The notes: generated from the letters alone by a model not told the origin. A DNA stretch of 64,000 nt from Gemmatimonadales bacterium (GCA_035549935.1 DASZPT010000151.1:967-64966); one strand, 5' to 3'. Shown: positions 1 to 64,000, counted from the stretch's first letter. Translations and numbers: made by a program.

Positions 1-1
1 C

Positions 2-382
2 CGCAAGGTCCTCGGGCACATCATGCGGATGCGGCTCCAGGAGACCTTGGAGTTCGCGCTGGACGAGATCACCCGCGCGGGCTACCACCAGCGGCTGCCG
101 GCCGGGGTGGTGCTCACCGGCGGCGGGGCGCAGACCCCGGGCATCGTGGAGCTGGCGCGCGAGGTCTTCGCGATGCCGGTGCGGGTGGGAAAGCCGGGGC
201 AGAACCTCGCCGGCCTCACCGACAGCGTGGAATCGCCCCGCTCGGCGGTGGTGGCGGGGCTCGCCCTCTACGGATCACGCCAGCTGGTGCAGGGCGCCAG
301 CTTCGGCTCGGGCAAGCGCAGGTCGCAAGCGATGGAAAAATGGGTGATGCCGGTACGGCAATGGCTGCAGGACTTCTTCTGA
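2..382 (+). CDS. ftsA: cell division protein FtsA, C-terminal part (5' end outside window)
   Basis: Frame open to the window edge. Actin-like ATPase C-terminal region ([28 protein letters not shown]). Sits directly upstream of ftsZ. Confidence 0.9.
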
Positions 383-407
383 TCCCCGACGGGCGAGAGG
401 ATACCCC

Positions 408-1577
408 ATGATCTTCGAGCTGGAAGAGAGCGGCGCGCAGAACGCCCGCATGAAGGTGATCGGCGTCGGCGGCGGCGGCGGCAACGCCGTCAACCGGATG
501 ATCGAGGAGCAGCTCCAGGGGGTCGAGTTCATCTCGGTGAACACCGACTCGCAGGCGCTCACCAACTCGAAGTCCGACGTGAAGATCCAGATCGGCCGCA
601 AGCTTACCCGCGGGCTGGGCGCGGGGGCCCGCCCGGAGATCGGGCGCCAGGCGATCGAGGAGAACCGGGACGACGTCCTGCAGGCGCTCCAGGGCGCCGA
701 CATGGTCTTCGTCACCTGCGGCATGGGCGGCGGCACCGGCACCGGCGCGGCGCCGATCATCGCGCAGATGGCGCGGGACATCGGGGCCCTGACCGTCGGC
801 ATCGTGACCAAGCCCTTCCTCTTCGAGGGGAAGAAGCGGATGCGCCAGGCGGAGATGGGGATCGCCGAGATGCGCAACTCGGTCGACACGATGATCGTGG
901 TGCCGAACGAGCGGCTCCTCGCCGTGGTGGGGAAGGGGATTCCGTTCCAGGACTCGCTCAAGAAGGCGGACGAGGTCCTGCTGCAGGCCACCCAGGGCAT
1001 CGCCAACCTGATCACCAAGACCGGCATCATCAACGTCGACTTCGCCGACGTGCGTACCATCATGCAGAACGGCGGCTCCGCCCTCATGGGGACCGGTGTC
1101 GGCCGGGGGGAGAACCGGGCGATGGAGTCGGCCCAGCAGGCGATCTCGAGCCCGCTGCTCGACAACATCTCGATCGCCGGCGCCAACGGGGTGCTGATCA
1201 ACATCACCGGCGGCAACGACCTGACCCTGGGCGAAGCGACGACGATCAACGACATCATCCACGACGCGGTGGGCGACGAGGCCGAGATCATCTTCGGCGC
1301 CGCCACCGACCCGTCGATGCAGGGCGAGGTGCGGGTCACCGTCATCGCGACCGGCTTCGACCGGGTGGCGGAGCAGCCGGTGGCCCCGGCCCAGCCGGCC
1401 AAGCCGGCGCCGGGCGTCATCAATTTCCCGAGCGGGAAGCGGGTGACAGCGCCCCAGCCGCAGCCGCCCGCCGCCCCGGTCCAGCCGCCGGCCCGCCCCG
1501 ACGCGCGCCGTACGCCGAACCCGGGCGATGTGCCGGAGATGGAGATCCCGACGTTCATCCGCCGGCAGATGGACTGA
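408..1577 (+). CDS. ftsZ: cell division GTPase FtsZ
   Basis: 389 aa with [13 protein letters not shown] and tubulin signature [21 protein letters not shown]-like motif upstream of the ATG. Confidence 0.98.
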
Positions 1578-1611
1578 GCGGCTGGCAAGGACTCGGTCCA
1601 CCATGAACAGC

Positions 1612-1692
1612 TCAACGCAGAGGCGCAGAGAACGCAGAGGGCCGCCGAGGGCCCTCTGTGAACCCTGCGTCCTCCGCGTCTCCGGTTTGAAG
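1612..1692. repeat. CGCAGAG-type hairpin repeat, copy A1 ('empty', 5-nt loop)
   Basis: TCAACGCAGAGGCGCAGAGAACGCAGAGGGCC / loop / GGCCCTCTGTGAACCCTGCGTCCTCCGCGTCTCCGGTTTGAAG. Fills the ftsZ-M23 intergenic gap. Confidence 0.85.
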
Positions 1693-1694
1693 TC

Positions 1695-3021: not shown

Positions 3022-3738
3022 GTGGATCTCTTCCCCGCAATCGACATCCGTGGCGGCCGGGTCGTGCGCCTGGCGCAGGGCGAGGCCGGGCGCGAAACCC
3101 GGTACCATGATGATCCCGTAGCACAGGCAGAGCAGTTCCTCGCCGCTGGTGCACGCTGGATTCACGTGGTCGACCTCGACCGTGCCTTCGGTTCCGGGAA
3201 CAATCTTGCGGCGATCCAGGCCATCGCGTCTCGCGTCGGAACGCGGGTGCGCATCCAGGTGGGCGGTGGCCTCCGTTCGCTCGACGCACTCGACGCGGTG
3301 CTCGGGCTGGGTGTCGCGCGTGCCGTCCTCGGCACCGCCGCGGTCACCGAGCCGGCGCTGGTGCCGGCCGCGATCCGGGCCGCGGGCGCCGAGCGGGTAG
3401 TGATCGGTCTCGACGCGAAGCGGGGGATGGTCGCGATTCGCGGGTGGGTGGAGACCACCGATCTGCGGGTCGACGAGGTCTGCCGCCGGGTGCTGGGCGA
3501 GGGCGCGAAGACGATCGTCTACACCGATGTCGCGCGGGACGGGATGCTCAGCGGCCCCGATGTCGAGGGCGCGAAGGTATTGAGCGCGATGGGGGCCGCG
3601 GTGATCGCGAGCGGCGGGGTGAGCTCGCTCGACGATCTGCGGGCCGCGAAGGCGGCGGGCCTCGCCGGCGCGATCGTCGGGCGGGCGCTGTACGAAGCGA
3701 AGTTCACTCTCGAACAGGCACTTGAGACGACCCGGTGA
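3022..3738 (+). CDS. hisA: phosphoribosylformimino-5-aminoimidazole carboxamide ribotide isomerase (HisA)
   Basis: The typical HisA N-terminus DLFPAIDIRGGRVVRL begins at in-frame GTG 3022. GGGLRS and ASGGVSSLDDL motifs present. The ORF-track start at 2917 would overlap the upstream gene. Confidence 0.9.
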   Translation: MDLFPAIDIRGGRVVRLAQGEAGRETRYHDDPVAQAEQFLAAGARWIHVVDLDRAFGSGNNLAAIQAIASRVGTRVRIQVGGGLRSLDALDAVLGLGVARAVLGTAAVTEPALVPAAIRAAGAERVVIGLDAKRGMVAIRGWVETTDLRVDEVCRRVLGEGAKTIVYTDVARDGMLSGPDVEGAKVLSAMGAAVIASGGVSSLDDLRAAKAAGLAGAIVGRALYEAKFTLEQALETTR

Positions 3739-3744: not shown

Positions 3745-3843
3745 ATTCCCGCAGAGGCGCAAAGGCGCAGAGGGCCGCAGAGAGTTGGTCGGACCGCCGA
3801 ATCCTCTGCGGCCCTCCGCGTCTCGGTGCCACCGCGGTGAACC
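3745..3843. repeat. CGCAGAG-type hairpin repeat, copy A2
   Basis: GCAGAGGCGCAAAGGCGCAGAGGGCCGCAGAGA / 19-nt loop / CCTCTGCGGCCCTCCGCGTCTC...CCGCGGTGAACC. Lies between hisA and the vWA membrane gene. Confidence 0.8.
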
Positions 3844-5657: not shown

Positions 5658-5690
5658 CCCTCCGCGTGCTCTGCGCCTCGGTGCTGAATG
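5658..5690. repeat. CGCAGAG-type repeat, solo (reverse-orientation) arm A3
   Basis: CCCTCCGCGTGCTCTGCGCCTCGGTGCTGAATG resembles the right arms of A1/A4. No partner arm found. Confidence 0.7.
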
Positions 5691-8785: not shown

Positions 8786-9304
8786 CTAGAACCGAACCGA
8801 GCCCCTCAGCTGCGTTTCCCGCGGCGTCCAGCGGATCTCCGGGTTGAACGGGATGTTCCGCGGCAGCGACCGGGGCCGGGACAACTCCCAGACGAACAGG
8901 CCCGCGGCGCCGAGCAGCGATGCCTCCCCACCGAACAACCAGTTCCGCGCCCGCTTGTCCGCCGAGACCGACTGCTGGTAGTAGCGCTCGGCTGCCGGAT
9001 CGAGGTACCTGCCGTTGCCGCCCTGGGGGCACCCGCCGGGCTTCGCGTCGCAGTAGCTCGTCAGGCGGCTGAATGCCCGATCGGCATCGTCGTGCGCGTT
9101 GGCCGCCTGAATCCCCATCCCGATCGCGGCCGCCACCAGCGCCCACTTCCCGTACTTGACCAGCACCGGCGACGGGGGCCGCACCAGGGAGTCGGCGGCA
9201 CTCTGGGCCCGGAGCGGCGCGGCCGCCAGCAGGAGCCCGAGCAGCCCCGCCAGGCTCGTCCGTCGCCACCCGGAACTCGGAACTCGGAACCCGGAACTCC
9301 TCAT
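8786..9304 (-). CDS. hypothetical secreted/membrane protein
   Basis: 172 aa. Signal-like LAGLLGLLLAAAPLRAQS follows an N-terminus encoded by the heptamer repeat. ATGA overlap with the upstream beta-propeller gene. No family recognised. Confidence 0.55.
   Translation of the reverse strand: MRSSGFRVPSSGWRRTSLAGLLGLLLAAAPLRAQSAADSLVRPPSPVLVKYGKWALVAAAIGMGIQAANAHDDADRAFSRLTSYCDAKPGGCPQGGNGRYLDPAAERYYQQSVSADKRARNWLFGGEASLLGAAGLFVWELSRPRSLPRNIPFNPEIRWTPRETQLRGSVRF
9270..9299. repeat. CGGAACY heptamer array B1 (4 units, solo arm)
   Basis: CCGGAACTCGGAACTCGGAACCCGGAACTCC. Lies inside codons 2-12 of the minus-strand ORF 8786..9304. Confidence 0.9.
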
Positions 9305-10434
9305 CGGCCAATCCGGTGCAGGTCGCCGGCTCCACCCACGGCGAGGAACGTTCCGTCGTAGAGCAGGTACACCGGCAGTTCCGCGGGCCGGCCCAGCGCC
9401 ACCTTCCAGCTCTGCTCTCCGCTCTCGCGGTCGAACCCGTACAGCGTACCGTCCGCACCGCCGACCAGGAGCCAGGGGCCGAACAGCGCCGGCGTTCCGG
9501 TGGCGGGCCAGCCGGCCGAGTGGATCCGGGCCTCGAGGGGATCTCCCCCGGGAACGATCCTGTAGACGGAACCGGCCCGGGTCACACAGAACAGCGTATC
9601 ACCCTGTGCGGCAGGGGAGACGAGCAAGGGGGCATCGAGTCGCACGCGCCACTGCTCGTGAAGGCTGTCGGGGGCGATGGCGATCACCGTCGAGTCGCCG
9701 GTCGCGCCCACGAGGGACGTTCCGAAACGGATCCAGGGCGACGTCACCACGCCCGGCGCGCGCCGGCGCGCGAGGATCTGTCCGTCCCGCACCCGGAGGG
9801 TATACAGGCTGTCGTAGGAGGTCACCATCACCACCCCGGGGTCGAGCACCGCCGGCGGGACCCGGTTGCTCGGCAGCCGCTTCTTCCACTGGATCTTGCC
9901 GTTGGAGGTCCGGAGCCCCAGCACCTCTCCCTTCCGGTTGAGGACGATGAGCCGCCCCTCGGTGAGGGCCATCGGGGCCTGGACGTACCCCGTGCCGGTC
10001 GACCAGTTCTGCCGTCCGCTCTCCTTCCGGAGTGCCACGACCTTGCCGCCCGGCTGGTCGGTGGCGGCGTAGACCACGTCGCCCTCCTCGAGGACGCCGC
10101 CCACGATCGGCCCCGTCATCCGGACCGCCCAGCGGGTCTTGCCGCTCGCGAGGTCCACCGCGACCACCCGCCGGTCACTCCCGCCGAGATACGCGTTCAC
10201 CGTGTCGGTCGCGACCGGGGCGCTCGGTCCGCGGAGCGGGCGGGCCCGCCAGTAGCGCGTGAGCGGCGTGCCGTCGAGGGCGTGCGGCTGCTTGATTTCC
10301 CCCGGATCGAATTCGGGAACGGGGCGGTAGCCGCCACAGCCCGCGTTGACGGTCATCAGGACGACGGCTAGACTCCACGCCCTCCGGCAGACCTTACCAT
10401 GACCACCGTTCGCATCGAATCGCTCTCGGCCCAT
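9301..10434 (-). CDS. PQQ-like beta-propeller lipoprotein (BamB-like)
   Basis: Lipobox VNAGC. Repeated propeller-blade sequence of the BamB/PQQ-repeat type. Start is ATG 10434 (gives a full signal peptide and overlaps asnS by 36 nt) or ATG 10356. The rest of the 642-aa track ORF is antisense to asnS and is discarded. Confidence 0.8.
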   Translation of the reverse strand: MGRERFDANGGHGKVCRRAWSLAVVLMTVNAGCGGYRPVPEFDPGEIKQPHALDGTPLTRYWRARPLRGPSAPVATDTVNAYLGGSDRRVVAVDLASGKTRWAVRMTGPIVGGVLEEGDVVYAATDQPGGKVVALRKESGRQNWSTGTGYVQAPMALTEGRLIVLNRKGEVLGLRTSNGKIQWKKRLPSNRVPPAVLDPGVVMVTSYDSLYTLRVRDGQILARRRAPGVVTSPWIRFGTSLVGATGDSTVIAIAPDSLHEQWRVRLDAPLLVSPAAQGDTLFCVTRAGSVYRIVPGGDPLEARIHSAGWPATGTPALFGPWLLVGGADGTLYGFDRESGEQSWKVALGRPAELPVYLLYDGTFLAVGGAGDLHRIGR

Positions 10435-11696: not shown

Positions 11697-11793
11697 CGTT
11701 CCGCGTTCCGCGTTCCCCGTCCCGTGTTCGCCCTGTGCGCCCGCCCGTGTTCGGCCAAGGCGCGTCCCAACGCGGAACGAGGAACGCGGAACA
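11697..11793. repeat. GGAACGC-variant heptamer hairpin B2 (candidate bidirectional terminator)
   Basis: GTTCCGCGTTCCGCGTTCC (11698-11716) pairs with GGAACGAGGAACGCGGAAC (11774-11792) with 1 mismatch. Lies between convergent asnS and mazG. Confidence 0.8.
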
Positions 11794-21854: not shown

Positions 21855-21879
21855 GAAGGGAGAAGGGACAAGTGGGGGG
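21846..21879. repeat. GAGAAGG heptamer array C1 (solo arm)
   Basis: GAGAAGT GAGAAGG GAGAAGG GACAAGT followed by GGGGGG. The comEC stop codon lies inside the array. Confidence 0.8.
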
Positions 21880-22963: not shown

Positions 22964-22968
22964 GGACG

Positions 22969-22996
22969 CGGAACCCGGAACCCGGAACTCGGAACT
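22969..22996. repeat. CGGAACY heptamer array B3 (4 units, solo arm)
   Basis: CGGAACC CGGAACC CGGAACT CGGAACT. Ends 1 nt before ATG 22998. Fills the 34-nt fbp-mutase gap. Confidence 0.9.
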
Positions 22997-22997
22997 G

Positions 22998-40496: not shown

Positions 40497-40570
40497 TTCC
40501 GAGTTCCGGGTGCCGGGTTCCGAGTGGAGCCGGCGACGACCCGGAACTCGGAACTCGGAACTCGGAACTC
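40496..40570. repeat. CGGAACY heptamer hairpin B6
   Basis: Left arm GTTCCGAGTTCCGGGTGCCGGGTTCCGAG, 15-nt loop, right arm CCCGGAACTCGGAACTCGGAACTCGGAACTC. Occupies the whole ribE-ribBA gap. Confidence 0.9.
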
Positions 40571-40571
40571 T

Positions 40572-43770: not shown

Positions 43771-43777
43771 GGGTCCG

Positions 43778-43898
43778 GCGCGGAGGCGCGGAGGGCCACG
43801 GAGGTTCGTTGTTGCCGTAGTGACTTTCATGCTGGTGTTTGGACATCATGACCTCTGCGGCCCTCAGCGCCTGTGCGCCTCTGCGGTCGCAGTTCAGC
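43778..43898. repeat. CGCAGAG-type hairpin repeat, copy A5 with 47-nt AT-rich loop
   Basis: Left arm GGCGCGGAGGCGCGGAGGGCCACGGAGG, loop 43805-43851 (~45% GC by hand count), right arm CCTCTGCGGCCCTCAGCGCCTGTGCGCCTCTGCGGTCGCAGTTCAGC. Confidence 0.75.
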
Positions 43899-43923: not shown

Positions 43924-44235
43924 ATGCGGACCACCATCTCCGCCCGGCACTGTGAAATCTCCGACGAACTCCGCCAGCGCGCCGAGACCGTGCTCACCCG
44001 GCTGACCGGCCTGGTGAACCGCCCGGTCGACGGGACCATCGTGTTCGATGTCGCGAAGCAGCTGTCGACGGTCGAAATCCGGATCCACTCGAGCAGCGGC
44101 GAGCTGTTCGTCGCCACCGGGGAGGAGAAGGACCATCGCTCCGCGCTCGACCGGGCCGAGGAGAAGGTGAAGAAGCAGCTCGACAAGCACGGCGACACCC
44201 GGCGGAGCCGGGGAGCGAGGGACGCCGCCCTGTGA
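43924..44235 (+). CDS. hpf: ribosome hibernation promoting factor (short HPF/RaiA type)
   Basis: 103 aa S30AE family member (ISARHCEISDELRQRAE..., RSALDRAEEKVKKQL). GAGGAGG SD upstream. Confidence 0.9.
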   Translation: MRTTISARHCEISDELRQRAETVLTRLTGLVNRPVDGTIVFDVAKQLSTVEIRIHSSSGELFVATGEEKDHRSALDRAEEKVKKQLDKHGDTRRSRGARDAAL

Positions 44236-45197
44236 GCCTGACCCTCCGCGAGATCCTCACCCGCAAGGGCGACCCGCTCGAGCTGGAGTCGCTCACCGGC
44301 GAGGTCGGGCTCGACCGGCCGGTGCCGGATCCCGAGGTCGCCTCGCCCGGGCTGGCGCTGGCCGGCTACACCGGCCGCTTCATGCCCCGGCGGCTCCATG
44401 TGCTGGGCGAGACCGAGATCACGTATCTCAATGCGCTCGACGCCGCCGAGCGCCGGTCCCGGCTCGAGAAGTTCTTCGAGTTCGATCTCCCGGTGGTGTT
44501 CGTCACGAAGGGGCAGGAGGTCCCGGCGGAGCTGACGGAGCTCGCCCGCAAGCGCGGGATCCCGCTCCTCAGGAGCCGGCTCAAGACGGCCGAGTTCTAC
44601 CGCCGGCTCAAGCCGATCGTGGAGGAGAGTTTCGCGCCGCGGACCACGCTCCACGGCTCGCTCGCGGACGTCTACGGGGTGGGGCTGCTCTTCATCGGCC
44701 AGTCGGGGATCGGGAAGAGCGAGTGCGTCCTGGACCTGGTCGAGCGGGGGCATCGCCTGGTCGCCGACGACATCGTCCAGGTGGCGCGGCGGGGCCGCGA
44801 CATCCTCATCGGGTCGGGCCACGAGCTGGCGGCCCACCACATGGAAATCCGCGGCATCGGCCTGGTCGACATTCCCGCGATCTTCGGCGTGCGGTCGGTG
44901 CGGCAGCAGAAGCGGATCGAGGTCGTGGTCCAGCTCGAGGCCTGGGAGAACGCGAAGGACGCCGACCGCACCGGCCTGCAGCAGCTCGAGACCACCATCC
45001 TCGACGTCACCATCCCCCGCGTCGTGGTCCCCCTCAATCCCGGCAAGAACATCACCGTGATCTCCGAGGTCGTGGCGATGATGCACCTCCTGCGCTACGC
45101 CGGGGTGGACGTGGCGGCGGCCTTCAACCAGCGCCTGATCAGGAAGATGCGGGAGAAGCAGGGACTCCGCGAATACCTGGCGGAAGACTATGAGTGA
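44232..45197 (+). CDS. hprK: HPr kinase/phosphorylase
   Basis: HGSLADVYGVGLLFIGQSGIGKSE P-loop, HRLVADD and MEIRGIG motifs. Confidence 0.95.
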   Translation: MSLTLREILTRKGDPLELESLTGEVGLDRPVPDPEVASPGLALAGYTGRFMPRRLHVLGETEITYLNALDAAERRSRLEKFFEFDLPVVFVTKGQEVPAELTELARKRGIPLLRSRLKTAEFYRRLKPIVEESFAPRTTLHGSLADVYGVGLLFIGQSGIGKSECVLDLVERGHRLVADDIVQVARRGRDILIGSGHELAAHHMEIRGIGLVDIPAIFGVRSVRQQKRIEVVVQLEAWENAKDADRTGLQQLETTILDVTIPRVVVPLNPGKNITVISEVVAMMHLLRYAGVDVAAAFNQRLIRKMREKQGLREYLAEDYE

Positions 45198-45564
45198 GGA
45201 GCTGCGCGGGATCGTGGTGGCCCACGGCGCCCTGGCCCAGGCCCTGGTCGACGAGGCCGAGCGGATCAGCGGCCAGAGCGGGGTCTTCGTCGCCGTGAGC
45301 AACACCGGCGGGAGCCGGGAGGAGATCGAGGCCCGGATTCAGGCCGCGGTGGCGGGCCATCCCTCGGTGGTCTTCGTCGACATGCCCTGCGGCTCCTGCT
45401 TCTTCGCCGCGATGCACCTCGCCAGGGTGGCGCCGGACGTGAAGGTCGTGACCGGCGTCAACCTCCCGATGCTGCTCGATTTCGTCTACAACCACGCGCT
45501 GCCCCCGGACCAGGGGGCCGAACGCGCGGCGGTGAAGGGTCACGACGCGATCCGGAAGCCCTGA
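45190..45564 (+). CDS. PTS mannose-family EIIA component
   Basis: GIVVAHGALAQAL with the phosphorylatable His. 124 aa. Confidence 0.88.
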   Translation: MSEELRGIVVAHGALAQALVDEAERISGQSGVFVAVSNTGGSREEIEARIQAAVAGHPSVVFVDMPCGSCFFAAMHLARVAPDVKVVTGVNLPMLLDFVYNHALPPDQGAERAAVKGHDAIRKP

Positions 45565-46037
45565 TGCCGATCGTGCTCTACCGGGTGGACGACCGTCTGG
45601 TGCACGGGCAGGTGGTGATCGGCTGGGGGAAGCCGCTCAACCTCCGCTTCATCGTGCTGCTCGATGACACCGTCTACGCCAGCGAGTGGGAGCGGGACCT
45701 CTACCGCATGGGCACCCCACCGGAAATCGAGCTTCGCTTCGCCGACCTCGCGGAGGCGGGCCGGATGCACGCCGCCTGGCGGGCCGAGCCGGGAAACGGC
45801 CTGCTCCTCACCGCCGACATCGCGACCATGGCGGCGCTCTGCCAGAGCGCACCGCCGGTGCCGGCGGTGAACCTGGGCGGGATTCATCACAAGCCGGGGC
45901 GTACCGCGCGGCTGCCCTACGTCTACCTCTCGGATGACGAGTACCGCATCCTGCGGGAGCTGGAGGCGACCGGCGTCGCGGTGACCGCGCAGGACCTGCC
46001 GACCACGCCGCCGGTCGCGCTCGAGGCGCTGGCCTGA
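45564..46037 (+). CDS. PTS mannose/sorbose-family EIIB component
   Basis: RVDDRLVHGQVV active-site His motif. Confidence 0.9.
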   Translation: MPIVLYRVDDRLVHGQVVIGWGKPLNLRFIVLLDDTVYASEWERDLYRMGTPPEIELRFADLAEAGRMHAAWRAEPGNGLLLTADIATMAALCQSAPPVPAVNLGGIHHKPGRTARLPYVYLSDDEYRILRELEATGVAVTAQDLPTTPPVALEALA

Positions 46038-46711
46038 TGACCCTGACCCCCGGCACCTTCGCGCTGCTCGCCGCCTGGGGCGCGCTCGCGGGGATGGACC
46101 TGGTGACCTTTCCCCAGGGGCTCTTCTCGCGGCCGCTCATCGCCTGTGCCGGCGCGGGACTCATCCTGGGCGATCCCGCTTCGGGGCTCCTCGTGGGCGT
46201 GCTGCTCGAGCTGTTCGCCCTCGACGTGCTGCCGGTCGGCGCCTCCCGCTACCCCGACTATGGTCCCGGGGCCGTCGCGTCGGTGGTGCTGGTGCACGGC
46301 GGCGCCTGGGACGAGCGGCTCGGCATGGCGGCCTTCTTCGCGCTGGTGATGGCGGTGGTCGGCGGGTGGAGCCTGATCTGGCTCCGGCAGGTGAACGGCC
46401 GGATCATTCAGCACCGGGCCGCGGGGCTCGCCTCGGGCGACGCCGGGACCATCGCCGCCATCCAGCGTCGCGGGCTCCTGGGCGACCTGGTCCGGAGCCT
46501 CGCGCTCACGGTGATCGCGCTGCTCCTCGCCCAGGCGCTGGCACCGCTCCTCCCCGGCGGCCAGCGCTTCACCTGGGTCACCGCCGCGGCGGTGGGCGCG
46601 GGCGTGGCCGCGGCGGCCGGCGGGGCGGTGCGTTCGGCGGGCCGGACCAGCCGGCTCCGCTGGCTGGTGGTCGGCACCGGGGTCGGACTCCTCGTGGCGG
46701 TGCTCACGTGA
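46037..46711 (+). CDS. PTS mannose-family EIIC component
   Basis: 224 aa polytopic protein with the LGDPASGLLVGVLLELFAL motif. Confidence 0.85.
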   Translation: MTLTPGTFALLAAWGALAGMDLVTFPQGLFSRPLIACAGAGLILGDPASGLLVGVLLELFALDVLPVGASRYPDYGPGAVASVVLVHGGAWDERLGMAAFFALVMAVVGGWSLIWLRQVNGRIIQHRAAGLASGDAGTIAAIQRRGLLGDLVRSLALTVIALLLAQALAPLLPGGQRFTWVTAAAVGAGVAAAAGGAVRSAGRTSRLRWLVVGTGVGLLVAVLT

Positions 46712-47445
46712 GGAGCGGCTTCGTGCGGGCGCTCTGGCGGCTCTGCTCGGTGCAGGGCGCCTGGAACTACGAGCGGATGACCGGGATCGGGATGGGCCAC
46801 GCGGCCGAGCCGCTGCTCGAGGACCTCAAGTCGGCGGACCCCGGGCGGCACGCCGAGGCGGCGGTACGCGCGTCGGAGTACTTCAACTCCCACCCGTATC
46901 TCGCGGGGCTGGCCCTCGGCGCCCTGGTGCGCGCCGAGTACGATCTGGTCCCGGGCGCGCAGATCAGCCGGCTCCGGGCGGCGCTCACCAGCCCGCTCGG
47001 CGCGCTGGGCGACCAGTTCTTCTGGGCCGGTGTGGTCCCCGCGGCGATGGGACTCGCGATCCTCGGCGTGGTCGGCGGCTACGGCCTGCTGGCCACCGTG
47101 CTGGTGCTGGTGCTCTACAACGCCGGGCGGCTGCTCACCGGGATCTGGGCGCTTCGCACCGGGCTCGCGAGCGGGATGAAGGTCGGCGCGGCGCTGGGCG
47201 ACTCCTGGCTGCCCCGCGCGGTGACGCCCGCCGGCCTGCTCGCGGGCCTGGTGATCGGGCTCGCGGTGCCGCTCGGCGCCGACTGGCTTCTCGATCCCCT
47301 CGGTCGCCGCGCGGCGATCGTCACCGTCCTGACCGCGCTCGCGGGGTTGGTGGCCTCGTGGCGGCTCGGCCCCCGGATCACCGCGGTCAAGTTCGGCCTG
47401 GTCGCCATCGGTCTCGCCCTCATCCTCGCGTGGGGACTGCCATGA
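46708..47445 (+). CDS. PTS mannose-family EIID component
   Basis: GTG 46708 (GTGA overlap). The LCSVQGAWNYERMTGIGMGHA pattern is typical of IID. Confidence 0.85.
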   Translation: MRSGFVRALWRLCSVQGAWNYERMTGIGMGHAAEPLLEDLKSADPGRHAEAAVRASEYFNSHPYLAGLALGALVRAEYDLVPGAQISRLRAALTSPLGALGDQFFWAGVVPAAMGLAILGVVGGYGLLATVLVLVLYNAGRLLTGIWALRTGLASGMKVGAALGDSWLPRAVTPAGLLAGLVIGLAVPLGADWLLDPLGRRAAIVTVLTALAGLVASWRLGPRITAVKFGLVAIGLALILAWGLP

Positions 47446-47708
47446 TCGAACGCGAAGCCAAGATCGTGAATCAGCTCGGCATGCACGCGCGGCCCGCGGC
47501 GGCGCTGGTGAAGCTGGCGAGCGGGTTCAAGTCCGACATCGAGGTGGTGAAGGACGGGATGGCGGTGAACGGGAAGAGCATCATGGGCGTGATGATGCTC
47601 GCCGCCGAGTGCGGCAGCAGCGTGCTGGTGCGGGCCAGCGGGCCGGACGAGGACGCGGCGATGACCGCCCTGCTCGCGCTGGTGGCGGGAGGCTTCGGGG
47701 AGTCATGA
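47442..47708 (+). CDS. ptsH: phosphocarrier protein HPr
   Basis: GMHARPA (His15 site) and NGKSIMGVMML (Ser46 site). Confidence 0.95.
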   Translation: MIEREAKIVNQLGMHARPAAALVKLASGFKSDIEVVKDGMAVNGKSIMGVMMLAAECGSSVLVRASGPDEDAAMTALLALVAGGFGES

Positions 47709-49513
47709 CGAGCGAGCGGCAGATCCGGGGCATCGGGGTCTCGCCCGGGCCGGGACTCGGCCGGGCGGTGATCGTGCGCCTGGATGTCCCGGATGTGCCC
47801 AACCGGTTCATTACCGACGCCGAGGTGGACGTCGAGGTCCGGCGGCTGCACGAAGCGGTGGGGGAAGTGACCCAGGTGCTGGAGGCGCTCCGCGACCGGG
47901 TGCGGGAACGGGCCGGCCGCGAGGAATCCCACATCTTCGACGCCCAGATCATGATGGCCCAGGACGTCGAATTCCTGGGCGGCGTGGAGCAGCTCATCCG
48001 GGAGAGCGGGATGAGCGCCGAGACCGCCTACGAGTTCAAGGCGCTCGAGATCCGCAACATCTGGGGTGGGTCCGGCAACGCGCTGCTGCGCGACCGCCTC
48101 GCCGACCTCTCCGCCATCCACAACCGGATGCTGCTCCAGCTCCTGGGGCGGACTCAGGACGAGTTCTGGGCGACGATGACCGACGAGCAGGTCGTCATCG
48201 TGGCGAAGGAACTCTCGCCCGGCCTCACGGTGCAGCTCGACCGCGACCACGTCGTCGGGCTGGTGAGCGAGGAGGGGACCCGCACCTCGCACGCCGCGAT
48301 CCTGGCCCATTCCCTCGGCATCCCGGCGGTGATGGGCGCGGTGGGAGCCCTCGAGCGGATCCGGACCGGCACGCAGCTCCTCGTCGACGGGCAGACCGGG
48401 ATCGTCATCCTGGAGCCGACCCGCGCCGAGATCGACCGGGTGCGGGCCCAGGTCTCCCGGCGCCAGAAGCTCGAGCTCGAGTTCGAGGCCGCGGTCACCC
48501 AGGCGGCGGTGACCCCCGACGGCGTCGCGATCACGCTGATGGGGAACGTCGACCTCCCCGACGAGATCATCCCGGCGGCGAAGCACGATGCCCACGGCGT
48601 CGGGCTCCTCCGCACCGAGTTCCTGGTCACCGGCCGCGCGGCGCTCCCGAGCGAGGACGAACAGACCGAGTACTTCCGCCGCGTGAGCGACGCCTTCCCC
48701 GGGCACCCGGTGATCGTCCGGTCGTTCGACCTCGGCGGCGACAAGTTCCCCGCCGCCTTCCGGGCGCCGCCGGAGGCGAACCCGTTCCTCGGCTGGCGGT
48801 CGATCCGGGTCTGTCTCGATCATCCCGAGATCTTCCGGCCCCAGATCCGCGCGGTGCTCCGGGCCGCGGCCGACCGGCAGATCCAGCTCATGCTCCCGCT
48901 GGTGACCCAGATCGAGGAGGTCACCACCACCAAGGCGATGGTGCTCGAGGAGGCGCTCAATCTCGCGCGCGAAGGGGTCCGCGCGGCAGCCTCGGTCCCG
49001 GTCGGGGTCATGATCGAGACCCCGGCCGCGGCGCTGATCGCGGACGAGCTGGCGGTGCACAGCGCCTTCTTCAGTGTCGGCACCAACGACCTGGTCCAGT
49101 ACACCCTGGCGGTGGACCGGGGGAACGCCCGGCTGGCGGAACGGTTCACTCCGTTCCACCCCGCGGTGGTGCGCCAGCTCAAGCTGGTGCTCGACGCGGG
49201 AACCCGGGCGGGGATCGCGGTGAGCGTCTGCGGCGAGATGGCGTCCGACCCGCTCGCGGTGGTGCTCCTCCTCGGTCTCGGCTACCGCACCCTCAGCGTC
49301 GCGCCGCCGGCGCTGCCGTTCCTCAAGTGGGTGGTGCGGACCATCCCGATCGAAGTGGCGGCCCGGGCCGCCTTCGCGGCCCTCGATGCGACCCAGTCGG
49401 CGGACATCACGAACACTCTCCGCACCGCCATGCAGGAGCATTTCGACCCCCGGATGCTGGACGCGCTCGCGGCGTTGCCGCGTCAGACCGGCGCCGCTAC
49501 CTTGCGCGAGTAA
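47705..49513 (+). CDS. ptsI: phosphoenolpyruvate--protein phosphotransferase (Enzyme I)
   Basis: 602 aa with GTRTSHAAILAHSLGIPAV, GTNDLVQY and SVCGEMASDP motifs. Confidence 0.96.
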   Translation: MTSERQIRGIGVSPGPGLGRAVIVRLDVPDVPNRFITDAEVDVEVRRLHEAVGEVTQVLEALRDRVRERAGREESHIFDAQIMMAQDVEFLGGVEQLIRESGMSAETAYEFKALEIRNIWGGSGNALLRDRLADLSAIHNRMLLQLLGRTQDEFWATMTDEQVVIVAKELSPGLTVQLDRDHVVGLVSEEGTRTSHAAILAHSLGIPAVMGAVGALERIRTGTQLLVDGQTGIVILEPTRAEIDRVRAQVSRRQKLELEFEAAVTQAAVTPDGVAITLMGNVDLPDEIIPAAKHDAHGVGLLRTEFLVTGRAALPSEDEQTEYFRRVSDAFPGHPVIVRSFDLGGDKFPAAFRAPPEANPFLGWRSIRVCLDHPEIFRPQIRAVLRAAADRQIQLMLPLVTQIEEVTTTKAMVLEEALNLAREGVRAAASVPVGVMIETPAAALIADELAVHSAFFSVGTNDLVQYTLAVDRGNARLAERFTPFHPAVVRQLKLVLDAGTRAGIAVSVCGEMASDPLAVVLLLGLGYRTLSVAPPALPFLKWVVRTIPIEVAARAAFAALDATQSADITNTLRTAMQEHFDPRMLDALAALPRQTGAATLRE

Positions 49514-51243: not shown

Positions 51244-52352
51244 ACGCCAGGGGCGTGCTCGCCGGCGCGGCGGCCGTGTGTCTCGCCGCGGCCCCGCTCC
51301 AGGCGCAGCAGCGCGCCAACGTCTCGGGACGGGTCCTGCGCATCACCGCCACCGACACCGTACCCGTGGCGGCGGCGAAGGTCGTGCTCCACCGCGTGGG
51401 CCGGGCGGTGCAGGGGCCGATCGACTCGACCACCACCGGGCCGCGGGGCGAATTTCGCTTCCGGTTCGTCCCCGACACCAGCGCCGTCTACCTGCTGAGT
51501 TCGGGGTGGGCCGGCATCGAGTACTTCTCGAGTCCCGTCCACACCGATCCCGCCGCGCCCGACACCGGGCTCATGGTGGTCGTCTCCGACACCTCGAGCA
51601 CGACCAGGATCGACGTCGTTTCGCGGCACCTGGTGGTGGGCAAGCCATCCTCCGGCGGCAGCCGCGCGGTGCTCGAGATCATCGTCCTCGGCAACCCCGG
51701 TCCGACCACGCGGGTGGCGGCCGACAGCGCCCATCCGACCTGGGTGGCGGGGCTGCCGCACGGGGCGGTCAATGTCGAGGCGGGCAACGGCGACTTCTCG
51801 AGCGAGGCGCTCACCTTCCGGAACGACAGCGTGCTGCTTTTCGCGCCGATCGCGCCGGGAGAGAAGCAGGTGATCCTCACCTACGCCCTCCCCGCGCGGA
51901 GCGGCCCGGTGACGATCGCGATGCCGGACTCGATCGCGATGTTCAACATCCTCCTCGAGGAGTTCAACCTCACCGCGAAGGGCGGCGGGCTCGCGAAGGC
52001 CGACAGCCAGCAGATCGAGGGGCGGAGCTTCCAGCAGTGGGTCGGCTCGGTGCCGGCCGGCGCGACCGTGACGATCGACTTCCCGGGCAAGGGCCTCGCG
52101 GGATGGTTCCTGCCCGCGATCGTGAGTCTGCTGGCGATTTCGCTGGCGGTGATCGCGAGCCGGGTGCTGCAGAAGCGCCCGCCCGTGGCGGCGCAGGCGT
52201 CGGCGCTCGACCGGCTGGCGCAGCTCGACGCGCGCTACGCCGGGAAGGAGGCGAGCGTGACCGCGGAGGAGTGGCAGCAATATCAGGCAGAGCGCGCTCG
52301 CCTCAAGCAGGAGGTCGGCGCCCAGCTTGCGCGGACTCGTCCAACGTCCTAA
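51240..52352 (+). CDS. hypothetical single-pass membrane protein with carboxypeptidase-regulatory-like domain
   Basis: Signal peptide. The SGRV..........V.L.........TTTGPRGEFRFRF pattern is CarboxypepD_reg-like. TM near the C-terminus and a charged tail. Confidence 0.65.
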   Translation: MNARGVLAGAAAVCLAAAPLQAQQRANVSGRVLRITATDTVPVAAAKVVLHRVGRAVQGPIDSTTTGPRGEFRFRFVPDTSAVYLLSSGWAGIEYFSSPVHTDPAAPDTGLMVVVSDTSSTTRIDVVSRHLVVGKPSSGGSRAVLEIIVLGNPGPTTRVAADSAHPTWVAGLPHGAVNVEAGNGDFSSEALTFRNDSVLLFAPIAPGEKQVILTYALPARSGPVTIAMPDSIAMFNILLEEFNLTAKGGGLAKADSQQIEGRSFQQWVGSVPAGATVTIDFPGKGLAGWFLPAIVSLLAISLAVIASRVLQKRPPVAAQASALDRLAQLDARYAGKEASVTAEEWQQYQAERARLKQEVGAQLARTRPTS

Positions 52353-52356
52353 CTTC

Positions 52357-52520
52357 GGCGCCGTCGTAGACAACTCATTGCACGCGAGTCGGGACGCTCG
52401 GAAGCCGGTGTGAAGCCGGCGCGGCCCCGCCACTGTAACGGGCAGCAACACTCTCCGCTCACGACGCCACTGGGAAACCGGGAAGGCGAGCGGAGGCCCG
52501 AAGCCAGGAGACCTCTCGGC
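52357..52520 (+). promoter_or_regulatory. cobalamin (B12) riboswitch
   Basis: Conserved blocks GGGACGCTCGGAAGCCGGTGTGAAGCCGGCGCGGCCCCGCCACTGTAACGGG, GCCACTGGGAAACCGGGAAGGCG and B12-box-like GAAGCCAGGAGACCTC. Ends 3 nt before the GTG of a BtuF-like gene. Confidence 0.9.
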
Positions 52521-52522
52521 TC

Positions 52523-53500
52523 GTGCCACCACCAACACCCTCGGGGGAGGGACGGGTGGCGTCACCAGCCTCGAAGTCCAGGCTCTTGATCGCCCATCTC
52601 CCAGGTGTCGGGGATGGGCGTTCTGTTTGCCGGGCCCTCGCGGCCGCGGCCCTCGCCCTCCTCGCCGCCTGCGGAACCAGGACCGGCACCACCGCCGGCG
52701 GGCTCGTGGTCGTCGATGACGCCGGCGACACCACGCGGCTCGCGCGTCCCGCGGTGCGGGTCGTGTCGCTCAGCCCGGCCACCACCGAGCTGATGTTCGC
52801 CATCGGCGCCGGCCCCGTGCTGGTGGGCCGCACCCGCTGGTGCGACTATCCCGCCGAGGCGAAGGCGGTGCCCGACGTCGGCGACGGCATCCCTCCCAAC
52901 ATCGAGAGCGTGCTGGCGCAGCATCCCGACCTGGTGCTGCTCTATCGCTCGCCCCAGAATGTCGACGCCGCCCGGCGGTTCCGCGAGGCCGGCGCCGCGG
53001 TGCTGCAGCTCGATTTCAACCATCTCGCCGATGTCTCCCGTCTCGCGCGCCTGGTGGCGCCACTGGTCGGTCATGCGGCGGAAGGCGACTCGCTCGCGAC
53101 CTCGCTCGACCGGCAGCTCCACCAGCTCGCGGCGACCCGGGACACCACCCACGCCGCCAACGTGCTGATCATGGCGTGGGACCAGCCGCCGATGGTGATC
53201 GGGGCGGGGAGCTTCCAGAGCGAGATCCTCACCCTGGCCGGCGGGCACAACGTCTTCGATGACGTCACCGCCCCGTCCGCCACCGTGAGCATCGAGGCGA
53301 TCGCGGCGCGGCACCCGGCGGTGATCCTGGTGAGCGACACCGGCGTTCCCGGCTTCGCGAGGCGCCCGGAGTGGCGGGTGGTCCCCGCGGTGCGCGACCG
53401 GCACTTCCTCCACTTCGCGACGCCGGCCTTCGGGCGGCCGAGCCCGCGGGCGCCGGCGCTGGTGCGGGCCCTCCGGGATTCGCTGGCGGCGGCGCGATGA
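52523..53500 (+). CDS. BtuF/FecB-type periplasmic binding lipoprotein (probable cobalamin-binding)
   Basis: Lipobox LLAAC. The VVSLSPATTELMFAIGAG pattern of PF01497. Follows the B12 riboswitch. Start is GTG 52523 or TTG 52586. Confidence 0.88.
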   Translation: MPPPTPSGEGRVASPASKSRLLIAHLPGVGDGRSVCRALAAAALALLAACGTRTGTTAGGLVVVDDAGDTTRLARPAVRVVSLSPATTELMFAIGAGPVLVGRTRWCDYPAEAKAVPDVGDGIPPNIESVLAQHPDLVLLYRSPQNVDAARRFREAGAAVLQLDFNHLADVSRLARLVAPLVGHAAEGDSLATSLDRQLHQLAATRDTTHAANVLIMAWDQPPMVIGAGSFQSEILTLAGGHNVFDDVTAPSATVSIEAIAARHPAVILVSDTGVPGFARRPEWRVVPAVRDRHFLHFATPAFGRPSPRAPALVRALRDSLAAAR

Positions 53501-57226: not shown

Positions 57227-57302
57227 GAGTTCCGGGTTCCGGCTCCAGGCGCGCTCACTCGGAACCCGGAACCCGGAACTCGGAACTCGGAACCCGGAAC
57301 TC
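57227..57302. repeat. CGGAACY heptamer hairpin B7 (right arm 6 units)
   Basis: GAGTTCCGGGTTCCGG / 17-nt loop / (CGGAACY)x6 at 57260-57301. Lies between the TonB-dependent receptor and the signal-less BtuF-like gene. Confidence 0.9.
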
Positions 57303-59345: not shown

Positions 59346-59358
59346 CGGACCGGGTCGT

Positions 59359-59410
59359 GAGTTCCGGGGGGGCATCGAACCCGGAACTCGGAACCCGGAA
59401 CCCGGAACCC
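59359..59410. repeat. CGGAACY heptamer hairpin B8
   Basis: GAGTTCCGGG / loop / CCGGAACT CGGAACC CGGAACC CGGAACC. Ends 1 nt before the recO GTG. Confidence 0.9.
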
Positions 59411-59411
59411 C

Positions 59412-60173
59412 GTGTCCCAGGTCTCCACCCCCGCCATCATCCTCGCCACGCTCCGGTACGGCGAGACCTCGAAGATCGTGCGACTCGCCACCCGGGATCA
59501 CGGGGTGCAGAGCGCGATCGCCAAGGGCGCCCTTCGGCCGAAGAGCCGGTTCGGCGCGGCGTTGCAGGTGCTGAGTGGAGGGCAGGCCCAGCTGATCCTC
59601 CGTGACGGGCGCGACCTCCATCTCCTCACGGCCTTCGATTTCCCGACCGTGCCGGTGGCAATCGCGCGCGATGTCGGCCGCTACGCCACCGCAACCGTGC
59701 TGGCGGAGATCACGCTGCACTTCTCGCCCGCGGAGCCCCATCCCGAGAGCTTCGATATCCTGAGGGAGGGACTGGCCCGGCTGGAGCAGGCCGGCCGGGA
59801 GGAGCTGGCGGCGGCGAGCCTGCGGGAAGTCTGGCGCCTGGTGGGCGCGCTGGGCTTCGCGCCCGCGCTCGATGACTGCGTCCGCTGCGGCCGCCCCGTT
59901 CCGGGCGCCGGGGCACTTCCCTTCGGCGCCCCCGACGGCGGGGCCCTCTGCGGCGCCTGTGCCGGCGGCCCCGAGAGTACGCTGCTGCCGCCCGAGGCGC
60001 GCGCCGCGCTGGTCCGGCTCCTCGGCGGGGACGGGGAACTTCCCGCGCTCGATCCCCGCAACGCCGCGGCGCACCGCCGCCTCCTGGCCCGCTACATCCG
60101 CTATCACATGGGGGAAGGGGCGAAGCTCCCCGCGCTCGAGTTCTGGCTGACCCAGGCCTGGGGAACCGCATGA
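59412..60173 (+). CDS. recO: DNA repair protein RecO
   Basis: GTG start. AIILATLRYGETSKIVRL OB-fold N-terminus and CxxC...CxxC zinc motif (CVRCG...CGAC). Confidence 0.92.
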   Translation: MSQVSTPAIILATLRYGETSKIVRLATRDHGVQSAIAKGALRPKSRFGAALQVLSGGQAQLILRDGRDLHLLTAFDFPTVPVAIARDVGRYATATVLAEITLHFSPAEPHPESFDILREGLARLEQAGREELAAASLREVWRLVGALGFAPALDDCVRCGRPVPGAGALPFGAPDGGALCGACAGGPESTLLPPEARAALVRLLGGDGELPALDPRNAAAHRRLLARYIRYHMGEGAKLPALEFWLTQAWGTA

Positions 60174-62029: not shown

Positions 62030-62082
62030 TCCGGCGGGAGACGATTATCACCCGATCGAGACCAGCTCAGGAGAGACCCTGC

Positions 62083-62502
62083 ATGCCCGTTCCCCGCTGG
62101 GTCGGGTGCGCGCTCGTGCTCCTCGCCGGGGTTGCCGGGTCCGCATTCGCCCAGGAACGGCCACCACCGCGTGTCGACCTGCACGACAACTATCCCAACC
62201 CGTTCTTCCCGTCGACGACGATTCCGTTCGTCCTCAGTCCGGAACTCTGCGAGCGAGGTCATCAGCCCCTGGTCAGTCTGAAGATCTACAATGTGCTGGT
62301 GCAGGTCGTCGCCGTACCGATCCTGCTCAATTCCAATGGGGAGCGCCTCGATGGGCTCCGGCTCCGGTGCGGAGCGCACGAAGCCTTCTGGGACGGCAAG
62401 CTGCTGGAGGGCAACAACCGGGAACTGACCCAGGGGGTCTACTACGCGCAGCTGACGGTGGACGGCGAACGCTATACGCTCAAGATGATTGCCCGCCGCT
62501 AG
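62083..62502 (+). CDS. small secreted protein consisting of a FlgD-Ig/T9SS-type C-terminal domain only
   Basis: GGAGAG SD. Signal peptide ...GSAFAQ, then NYPNPFFPSTTIPF ... GVYYAQLTVDG. Confidence 0.75.
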   Translation: MPVPRWVGCALVLLAGVAGSAFAQERPPPRVDLHDNYPNPFFPSTTIPFVLSPELCERGHQPLVSLKIYNVLVQVVAVPILLNSNGERLDGLRLRCGAHEAFWDGKLLEGNNRELTQGVYYAQLTVDGERYTLKMIARR

Positions 62503-62526
62503 GGGGCGGTCGTCGGTTCAGGAGAC

Positions 62527-62563
62527 ACGGGCCGGGGAATCACTCCCCGGCCCGTTCCCCTTT
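62527..62563 (+). terminator. intrinsic terminator-like hairpin after the recO-selB-CTD gene run
   Basis: Perfect 12-bp stem ACGGGCCGGGGA / TCCCCGGCCCGT with loop ATCAC, followed by TCCCCTTTG (weak U-tract). Confidence 0.6.
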
Positions 62564-62679
62564 GCTGCCGGAGTGACGCGTGCACTCGTGCCGGACGGAC
62601 TTCGCCGGCGGCCCCGGGTGGTCCTTCCCCTGCCAGGGAGGCAGATTTCCGGGGCCTGCCCCTTGCCGAGGAGACGGCC

Positions 62680-64000
62680 ATGATTCGACCCGAACGATTG
62701 ACCATCAAGGCCCAGGAGGCCTTTCGCGATGCCGCCGCGGAGGCGACCCGTCGCGGCAACCCGGTCGTGAACGACGCCCACCTCTTCGCCGCGCTGCTGG
62801 CGCAGGACGAGGGGGTGGTCCGCCCGCTGCTCCAGAAGGCGGGCCTCAACGTGACCGCCCTGGCCCAGGAGACCGCCCGCGAACTCGACCGGCTTCCCCG
62901 GCAGGAAGGGGGCGGCGAGCCGACGCTCGCGCGCGAGCTCCACAAGGTCTTCGACCGGGCCGAGGCGGAGGCGAAGACGATGGGCGATGCCTACGTCTCG
63001 ACCGAGCACCTCCTCGTGGGCCTGGCGGAAGAGAAGGGGACCACCGCCCGCCAGCTGCTCACCGCGAGCGAGGTCGACGCCGCGGCCCTTCGTGCGGCGC
63101 TCGCCGACGTGCGCGGTGCCCATCGCGTGACCGACCAGTCGCCCGAGACCCAGTACCAGGCGCTGGAGCGCTTCACCCGCAACCTGACCGACCAGGCCCG
63201 CCAGGGAAAGCTGGACCCGGTGATCGGCCGGGACGAGGAAGTCCGCCGGGTGATGCAGGTGCTCTCCCGCCGGACCAAGAACAACCCGGTGCTCATCGGC
63301 GAGCCCGGGGTCGGCAAGACCGCGATCGTCGAGGGGCTGGCCCAGCGGATCGTCAACGGAGACGTGCCCGAGTCGCTCCGGAACAAGGAGATCGTGGCGC
63401 TCGACATCGGTCTCCTCCTGGCCGGGGCCAAGTACCGCGGGGAGTTCGAGGAGCGGCTCAAGTCGGTGGTGAAGGAGCTGACCCAGGCGGAGGGGCGCTA
63501 CGTCGTCTTCATCGACGAGCTCCACACCCTGGTGGGCGCCGGCGCCGCCGAGGGCGCGGTGGACGCGAGCAACCTCCTCAAGCCCGCCCTCGCGCGCGGG
63601 GAGTTGCACGTCGTCGGCGCGACGACCCTGGACGAGTACCGCAAGCATGTCGAGAAGGACGCCGCCCTCGAGCGCCGGTTCCAGCCGGTGATGGTGGGGG
63701 AGCCGAGCGTCACCGACACGATCGCGATTCTCCGCGGGCTCAAGGAGAAGTACGAGGTGCACCACGGCATCCGGATCACCGACAATGCCCTGGTGGCCGC
63801 CGCGACCCTCTCCGACCGCTACATCGGCGACCGCTTCCTGCCCGACAAGGCCATCGACCTGATGGACGAGGCGGCGAGCCGGCTCCGCATGGAGATCGAC
63901 AGCCTGCCGCAGGAGATCGACGAGGTGGAGCGGCGGATCCTGCAGCTCGAGATCGAGCGCCAGGCGCTGCTCAAGGAGAAGGACAAGGCCGGCCTCGAGC
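62680..64000 (+). CDS. clpB: ATP-dependent chaperone ClpB (N-terminal ~440 aa; 3' end outside window)
   Basis: GAGGAG SD. Clp_N repeats, Walker [22 protein letters not shown] and the start of the coiled-coil M-domain. Not in the ORF track because there is no stop codon inside the window. Confidence 0.95.

Follow-up and report, generated by a model that had tools for sequence, protein, structure and literature searches.

Tandem-array hairpins between genes of a Gemmatimonadales genome: probable gene-less derivatives of intervening-sequence-like cassettes

Results

Short Tandem Arrays Occupy Most Long Intergenic Gaps

A 64,000-nt stretch of a Gemmatimonadales metagenome-assembled genome (GCA_035549935.1, DASZPT010000151.1:967-64966; the window hereafter) carries three families of short tandem repeats, named here after their CGCAGAG, CGGAACY and GGAGAAG units, which lie mostly between genes, either as two inverted arrays facing each other or as single (solo) arms (Table 1). 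The GC content of the window is 68-75% along its length (71% overall), at which lists of open reading frames are uninformative, and genes were therefore called with a codon-usage model trained on open reading frames of high third-position GC. The resulting map contains 64 genes, almost all on the plus strand, and after two corrections (the ribBA start placed at 40573, and a GxxExxY gene added) leaves 3,370 nt (5.3%) as intergenic DNA. A tRNA search of the window returned none, and an Rfam scan at gathering thresholds found no rRNA and no known RNA family matching the hairpins.

Arrays were counted with Tandem Repeats Finder (TRF; period 7-9, at least 2.9 copies), a looser detector having been set aside for its many false matches in coding DNA. 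Seventeen of the 19 arrays are intergenic (binomial P = 2.8e-20), and first-order Markov simulations of the window yield 0-5 such arrays (mean ~1.5). As a bare word, CGCAGAG shows no excess (23 matches against 20.5 expected). A chance origin of the arrays was rejected; the signal resides in their tandem arrangement and placement, which is non-random relative to genes within the window, and not in heptamer frequency.

Every repeat locus listed in a first-pass annotation of the window, including the fragment at 30563-30572, is present in the sequence. Its count of 9 occupied gaps among 12 of at least 100 nt becomes 10 of 13 on our gene map, where arrays likewise dominate the long gaps; a cobalamin riboswitch lies in one of the three gaps lacking arrays. 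As had also been noted, some shorter gaps are filled entirely by arrays (22964-22997, 37120-37176, 40497-40572 and 59346-59411). Several arrays end 1-2 nt ahead of a start codon, and many hairpins begin 0-40 nt past a stop codon. At 40495-40570, the TAG stop of ribE lies within the first unit and the array finishes 2 nt ahead of the ribBA ATG. Solo arms do occur (for example 9268-9299, 29266-29296 and 37146-37173), in either orientation to the genes and adjoining starts as well as stops.

The units were described as 7-8 nt long, but the CGCAGAG arrays have a period of 8-9. Opposed arrays had been proposed to form hairpins, and seven of them indeed fold with minimum free energy (MFE) stems of 17-30 bp (ΔG −33.8 to −65.8 kcal/mol, z −3.7 to −6.3). 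The proposal does not extend to 59355-59412, essentially a solo arm with only one unit on its 5′ side and a z score of −0.7, nor in its simple form to 30576-31033, whose arms enclose a 354-nt gene. The layout, tandem-array arms in inverted blocks, is neither the usual one of repetitive extragenic palindromes and bacterial interspersed mosaic elements (REP/BIME) nor that of CRISPR, as stated in that annotation; units of 7-9 nt run head to tail in two inverted blocks, in place of the 23-50-nt repeats and unique spacers of a CRISPR array.

Table 1. Repeat-related features of the window (positions counted from its first nucleotide; fold, free energy and z score of the predicted RNA structure)
Family	Feature	Position	Strand	Setting	Support
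CGCAGAG	Gene-less hairpin, CAACGCAGAG GCGCAGAG AACGCAGAGG ... CCTCTGTGAACCCTGCGTCCTCCGCG	1614-1680	.	37 nt past ftsZ stop	TRF; fold −46.2 kcal/mol, z −4.7
CGCAGAG	Gene-less hairpin	3750-3822	.	12 nt past stop codon	TRF; fold −47.0 kcal/mol, z −4.7
CGCAGAG	Degenerate solo arm, CTCTGCG (3′-arm) type	5658-5684	+		minus-strand CGCAGAG match at 5669-5675
CGGAACY	Solo array, 4 units	9268-9299	+	abuts stop codon of minus-strand gene 9301-10356	TRF
CGGAACY	GGAACGC-variant hairpin (CGTTCCG x3 ... GGAACG x3)	11697-11792	.	between convergent genes	TRF; fold −50.7 kcal/mol, z −3.7
GGAGAAG	Solo GAGAAGG array	21846-21874	+	overlaps comEC-like stop codon	TRF
CGGAACY	Solo array (3′-arm type)	22964-22996	+	fills whole 34-nt fbp-mcm gap	
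CGGAACY	Solo GAGTTCC array (5′-arm type), 4 perfect units	29266-29296	+		TRF
CGGAACY	GAGTTCCGAG fragment	30563-30572	+	just upstream of GxxExxY cassette	
CGCAGAG	Cassette 5′ arm, TTCAACGCGGAGA CGCAGAGAG CGCAGAGGG CGCAGAG	30576-30615	+	pairs with 30994-31033 across gene	TRF
CGCAGAG	GxxExxY gene, 117 aa, PD-(D/E)XK fold	30638-30991	+	cassette loop	missed by codon-usage caller
CGCAGAG	Cassette 3′ arm, CCTCCGCGG CCTCTGCGT CCTCTGCG CCTCTGCGTTGAA	30994-31033	+		TRF; fold
GGAGAAG	Hairpin, GGGAGAAGGGAGAGGGG CACC CCCCTTCTCCCTTCTCC...	36054-36110	.	directly after stop codon	TRF; fold −33.8 kcal/mol, z −3.8
CGGAACY	Solo GGAACTC array	37146-37173	+	between convergent genes	TRF
CGGAACY	Hairpin	40495-40570	.	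ribE-ribBA gap	TRF; fold −52.1 kcal/mol, z −6.3
CGCAGAG	Hairpin, ~50-nt loop	43771-43886	.	GT4-hpf gap	TRF; fold −65.8 kcal/mol, z −4.0
CGGAACY	Asymmetric hairpin, 2 vs 6 units	57227-57302	.	past TonB-dependent receptor gene	TRF; fold −42.4 kcal/mol, z −4.5
CGGAACY	Array of 5 units, single-unit 5′ arm	59360-59412	.	ends at recO start codon	TRF; fold z −0.7

CGCAGAG Arms Enclose a GxxExxY Gene

The 614-nt gap at 30508-31121 contains two inverted CGCAGAG arrays around a 354-nt gene of lower GC. When 30570-31040 is folded, the MFE and centroid structures agree in pairing the arms over ~35 bp, with the gene between them. The gene product matches TIGR04256 (E 1.2e-39) and PF13366 (E 6.9e-39), and a database protein 100% identical to it bears the name GxxExxY; MetK and ArgRS of the window likewise have database hits of 100% identity. 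The anatomy of 30576-31033 is that of a 23S rRNA intervening sequence (IVS), an inverted-repeat stem enclosing a four-helix-bundle or GxxExxY gene. It is the only such arrangement in the window; among loci fetched from other genomes (L numbers), the same arrangement is found in L058, L033, L142, L120, L123, L127, L210 and L214.

GxxExxY genes were examined in three genomic contexts and have CGCAGAG-type arms on both sides in every one, namely an orthologous site between HEAT and Zn-ribbon genes (the window, L120, L123 and L210), unrelated surroundings in L127, and a position beside Pyr_redox/Fer4 genes in L214-L223. The last case carries weight because the protein called there lacks an array-derived N terminus. 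In the relatives, the 5′ flank reads (T/C)CA(A/C)CGCAGAG(N)CGCAGAG... and the 3′ flank ...CTCTGCG(N)CTCTGCG(T/G)TG, with a conserved stem base, TCAACG...CGTTGA, that is not part of the arrays. The CGCAGAG arm comes first in all hairpins and cassettes of this family. The orthologue of the 43771-43886 hairpin in L118 has a loop of 110 nt.

Furthermore, about 30 of the best 120 GxxExxY homologues have, by inspection, called N termini such as QRRGAENAEAAE, QRRGAENAE, TETQRHRE or HRDTE. These are translated CGCAGAG or CACAGAG arrays, and thus start-codon miscalls that expose the arrays; no CGGAACY translation was found among the called GxxExxY N termini. Many of the public GxxExxY database proteins (P0122-P0217) carry N-terminal extensions translated from an upstream repeat array. 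A search for a phage origin of GxxExxY, by scanning viral contigs with the protein and with a 28-sequence profile, gave no relatives, and this origin was set aside.

Two observations concern the surroundings of such cassettes. In L217 (~3257-3300; also L214, L215 and L218-L221), a second PDDEXK_3 gene lies ~1.4 kb downstream and is preceded by an array of GACACGAA units, so that a single genome can hold GxxExxY cassettes with differing arm units. In the window, a promoter-like TTGAAT-17 nt-TAAGAT site and then a small CTAAGA...TCTTAG hairpin (31058-31110) lie upstream of the Zn-ribbon/argS operon. The site is strongly conserved upstream of the Zn_ribbon_8 gene in L120, L123 and L210-L213, and the cassette, just upstream of it, hence sits in an inter-operon spacer.

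CGGAACY-Type Arms Flank Four-Helix-Bundle Genes in Other Genomes

Loci totalling 795 kb were fetched solely for containing three CGGAACY units, and they hold exactly two four-helix-bundle genes (TIGR02436, "23S rRNA IVS protein"). In both cases, L058 (Gemmatimonadota) and L033 (Planctomycetota), a GTTCC array and a GGAAC array bracket the gene exactly. We also sampled metagenomes for 80 loci encoding the closest relatives of one four-helix-bundle query, not the whole family, and scored 77. Period-7 arrays are present on both flanks in 32 of these 77, compared with 0 of 469 control positions, and flank complementarity exceeds that of all 103 controls in 61. The 5′ arms are of GAGTnnn type (AGTGCTG, GAGGACT, ATGAGTA) and the 3′ arms of nnnACTC type; CTCTGCG-type units are absent from the tabulated 3′ arms. 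GAGTTCC...CGGAACY arms enclose four-helix-bundle genes in three fetched loci, and in L142 they are the window's own GAGTTCC...CGGAACT arms.

The unit sequences had been called unrelated. The sequences are indeed distinct, yet each repeat family seems to go with a gene family of its own, and together the three repeat families do not look like independent inventions. In loci from other phyla (L001-L116), CGGAACY arrays often run into units that differ by 1-2 bases (CAGAACC, TTGAACC, CTGAACT, TCAGCAC), which suggests rapid unit turnover within one array.

Arm Order Is Fixed and Paired Units Change Together

Across all fetched loci, which span many phyla, inverted pairs with spacers of at most 120 nt occur 29 times in the order 5′-GTTCC...GGAAC-3′ and once in the reverse order. 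Reading the opposite strand of an inverted pair leaves its arm order unchanged, so the order belongs to the element itself. Independent slippage or template switching would give both orders, whereas common descent or a common mechanism would give one, and the 29:1 ratio fits the latter. At the ribE-ribBA junction, the window and its relatives L117, L118 and L119 carry the unit pairs GAGTTCC/GGAACTC, TCGTTCC/GGAACGA and GCGTTCC/GGAACGC, in hairpins folding at −24 to −72 kcal/mol, so every unit of both arms has changed together. A GAG (5′ arm)/CTC (3′ arm) motif shared across families was enriched in the scan set (42 versus 6) and was set aside, as many units have neither.

These data bear on the view that the arrays are ordinary simple-sequence repeats, in which slippage grows heptamer arrays and template switching at quasi-palindromes makes hairpins, with no identity, mobility or function attached. 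Among simple repeats with units of 5-11 nt, heptanucleotides are the commonest in many prokaryotic genomes, a finding ascribed to slippage, according to a 2007 survey as relayed in PMC4679880 and PMC4692102. Copy number and unit sequence vary strongly among close relatives, and arrays of related units run together in many genomes, all of which such a view would accommodate. It predicts equal arm orders, however, and involves no partner, polarity or gene, whereas the observed order is 29:1 and cognate genes lie between the arms. It also leaves unexplained why a given kind of arm accompanies a given gene in unrelated genomes, how complete hairpins of 60-150 nt come to lie within 4-nt gene overlaps (below), and why the stem base outside the arrays is conserved. 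We consider slippage alone quite unlikely to be the explanation.

Hairpins Are Present or Absent as Whole Units in Relatives

Syntenic loci were identified by MetK (L117, 95% identity; L118, 94%; L119, 89%) and by ArgRS (L210, 89%, on the same contig as L118; L211, 80%, on the same contig as L119; L212, 80%; L213, 79%). The HEAT/GxxExxY/Zn-ribbon site has the cassette with both arms in the window, L210, L120 and L123. The corresponding gap in L212 measures 87 nt and contains no vestige of the gene or the arms, and in L211 a solo 3′ arm is joined directly to the conserved downstream promoter region. In L212 and L213, fbp and mcm overlap by ATGA; at this junction L210 has four GAGTTCC units, a loop of ~70 nt and four CGGAACY units. 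The junction holds a degenerate hairpin in L211 and the 3′ arm alone in the window (34-nt gap). This comparison suggests that the hairpin was inserted and that the solo arm of the window arose by deletion. A 50-aa "gene" called in L210 (1797-1949) coincides with the fbp-mcm array hairpin. Similarly, ribE and ribBA overlap by ATGA in L212, with hairpins between them in the window, L117, L118 and L119.

L212 and L213, syntenic with 17-44 kb of the window, have no hairpins at the compared junctions and much shorter gaps; L212 has one CCGCCATA array in a single gap. The missing hairpins point to an invasion specific to part of the clade. Two junctions that hold CGGAACY hairpins in the window are occupied in L117 (17812-17941 and 19954-20109) by a different palindrome of ~110-130 nt, TCTGTCATTCCGAGC...GCTCGGGATGACAGA, which resembles miniature inverted-repeat transposable elements (MITEs). 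Near the window's 43771-43886 hairpin, a compact operon at 43924-49513 (hpf, HPr kinase, mannose-type phosphotransferase system EIIA/B/C/D, HPr and enzyme I, then metK) is fully syntenic in three relatives.

The Hairpins Lack the U-Tracts of Canonical Terminators

The first-pass annotation raised a terminator, insulator or mRNA-stability role, perhaps through a protein reading heptad periodicity, and, as its alternative, several related selfish elements. Host-selected RNA elements of the former kind, including mRNA-stabilizing 3′ stem-loops, would suit the position of many hairpins just past stop codons and the maintenance of the ribE-ribBA hairpin in four genomes with compensated arms. The 36054-36110 site, where L210 has a hairpin of GGCCGTT/AACGGCC and L212 an ordinary GC-rich stem-loop, likewise suggests that stem-loops are interchangeable. 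None of the window hairpins, however, is followed by a U-tract or T-run, and canonical Rho-independent terminators were rejected on this ground. A terminator scan flagged only part of 36066-36084, where the "tail" is the T-rich 3′ arm, and showed no enrichment of terminator-like sites. The cobalamin riboswitch at 52350-52620 (RF00174, 68.9 bits) is followed by a U-tract terminator at 52591-52620, so the organism does use such terminators; the operon behind it encodes a periplasmic binding protein, FecCD, an ABC ATPase and a TonB-dependent receptor.

Hairpins at junctions where the genes of relatives overlap imply that read-through must be tolerated, since strong termination there would be harmful, and these hairpins are presumably co-transcribed. 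L212 and L213 lack hairpins at the same junctions, the solo arms stand in either orientation, upstream of starts and beside stops, and there is no clear sense-strand stability bias. Host-selected elements are thus unlikely in our judgement, and the terminator or insulator role finds little support here. The data speak neither for nor against a protein that reads the heptad period. The selfish-element alternative is favored by arms flanking GxxExxY or four-helix-bundle genes, by presence or absence of whole units and by the 29:1 arm order.

About equal stability on both strands and the nuclease fold of GxxExxY would agree with an action on DNA, in which the repeats serve as cruciform or slipped-strand signals for recombination or replication, or as arrayed sites to which a DNA-binding protein attaches. 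The precedent, the rRNA IVS, acts on RNA (PMC4990558), and we regard a DNA-level action as very improbable.

Discussion

Together, these observations support the idea that the intergenic hairpins are probably gene-less derivatives of a widespread class of IVS-like palindromic cassettes, co-transcribed as double-stranded RNA stems. In a full element, a small gene would lie between a 5′ arm built as a tandem array of 7-9-nt units and a 3′ arm carrying their reverse complement, with CGCAGAG(G) arms paired with GxxExxY (PD-(D/E)XK) genes, and GAGTTCC/CGGAACY arms, or more broadly GAGTnnn/nnnACTC, paired with genes for the four-helix-bundle "23S rRNA IVS protein". Hairpins would be miniature forms without the gene and solo arms remnants, although the direction could be either, gene-less from gene-bearing forms or genes settling into existing hairpins. 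The elements would be mobile, now or formerly, and insert at gene boundaries with little harm. Tandem arms produced by replication slippage could grow, shrink and re-pair in several registers. Co-transcription with neighbouring genes would yield stems of 17-35 bp, predicted from folding models to be long enough as double-stranded RNA substrates; by analogy with rRNA IVS, RNase III processing or protection of mRNA 3′ ends is likely. The most economical reading is that the elements are selfish or near-neutral, settled at gene boundaries and co-transcribed.

Several points weigh against this account. A comparison of filled and empty sites gave no clear target-site duplication, no transposase or other means of mobility came to light, and neither candidate protein (GxxExxY or four-helix-bundle) is a known transposase. 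Searches by tblastn with GxxExxY and four-helix-bundle queries found no gene remnant in the hairpin loops or in the L211 remnant. The window has no four-helix-bundle gene, so the link between CGGAACY and that gene rests on other genomes, where the scored sample represents the neighbourhood of a single query. For the GGAGAAG family, the fetched data contain no relative that carries a gene. Finally, the sense strand is the more stable in 11 of 16 hairpins and in cassettes by 49 to 25 (Wilcoxon p = 0.11), so that selection at the RNA level is not demonstrated.

More tentatively, rRNA IVS, hairpins of cyanobacterial short tandemly repeated repetitive sequences (STRR) and the Gemmatimonadales repeats might form one mobile family that crosses phyla, a possibility to which we give distinctly less credence than to the derivation of the hairpins from IVS-like cassettes. 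The GxxExxY nuclease would then cut CGCAGAG arrays, and the four-helix-bundle protein, related to Avd of diversity-generating retroelements, would bind GAGTnnn. Gene-less hairpins would be both non-autonomous copies and landing sites, with the arms supplying homology for copying cassettes into empty hairpins.

Knowledge of rRNA intervening sequences, and of the two families of small proteins that they encode, dates from about 1990, and cyanobacterial STRR were on record before 2007. We know of no accepted origin or function for heptamer repeats, STRR or rRNA IVS. The over-representation of heptamer repeats in bacterial genomes has been on record since 2007, as relayed in PMC4679880 and PMC4692102. 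The evidence presented here connects these repeats with IVS cassettes, in that the repeats are the arms, the arms are specific to gene families, and gene-less copies are distributed across junctions. If this holds genome-wide, it provides a testable model for PF13366/TIGR04256 and PF05635/TIGR02436, two large families of unknown function, and accounts for one class of the intergenic DNA of several phyla. A correction of annotation is also practical, because gene callers translate the arrays into false N termini and false small genes.

Our literature search, which did not extend to subscription journals, found no paper that ties such arrays to either family of IVS genes, none on gene-less derivatives or on presence and absence at junctions, and none on a fixed arm order. 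It also found no description of repeat arms of PF13366, TIGR04256, PF05635, GxxExxY or "S23 ribosomal" genes, a prior description being possible. 23S_rRNA_IVP genes have been reported scattered within cas loci (PMC3936711).

Among known systems, REP/BIME, REPIN and MITEs resemble the elements described here in being short, gene-less, intergenic palindromes that are numerous, lie at gene boundaries within operons and are present or absent between relatives. In the usual view, they either descend from a gene-bearing partner or rely on one. They differ in that the arms here are tandem arrays of 7-9-nt units and not, as in REP/BIME, one conserved imperfect palindrome of 20-40 nt, and in that the candidate partners are GxxExxY and four-helix-bundle genes and not RAYT or insertion-sequence transposases.

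STRR and other heptamer repeats share with the window arrays ~7-nt tandem units, intergenic location and variation between close relatives at the same gene pairs. Three tandemly repetitive heptanucleotides are described from the cyanobacterium Calothrix, and in Xanthomonas GGGAATC repeats lie between the same gene pairs in two species, vary extensively and sometimes form inverted pairs able to fold into stem-loops (PMC4692102); going by the title of Vioque (1997), STRR occur within the cyanobacterial RNase P RNA gene. In these reports from Calothrix/Nostoc and Xanthomonas, unlike here, the arrays are treated as simple repeats or G-quadruplex motifs, and the lineages and units are others. The TAACTGA repeats of marine Beggiatoaceae and cyanobacteria, intergenic heptamers found across phyla (PMC4679880), resemble several window arrays in finishing close to a start codon, often 1 nt ahead of it. 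They are nearly all direct, in one orientation to the downstream gene and with a single inverted case, whereas hairpins dominate here and solo arms are unoriented.

The closest comparison is with the 23S rRNA IVS of Coxiella burnetii and Leptospira, in which an inverted-repeat stem surrounds a single small gene, again of the GxxExxY or four-helix-bundle kind. In Coxiella, that stem consists of terminal inverted repeats with two to three tandem GACAGAT heptamers upstream of the small gene; GACAGAT copy number differs among strains, and RNase III cleaves at the first repeat (PMC4990558). The elements here differ in lying outside rRNA, in being mostly gene-less and in having other units; their excision is predicted by analogy. 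Helices 25 and 45 of the 23S rRNA gene are the sites of the IVS, whereas all window copies are located between protein-coding genes. IVS-like cassettes that lie outside rRNA and are mostly gene-less in Gemmatimonadota are probably a variant of an already known type of element.

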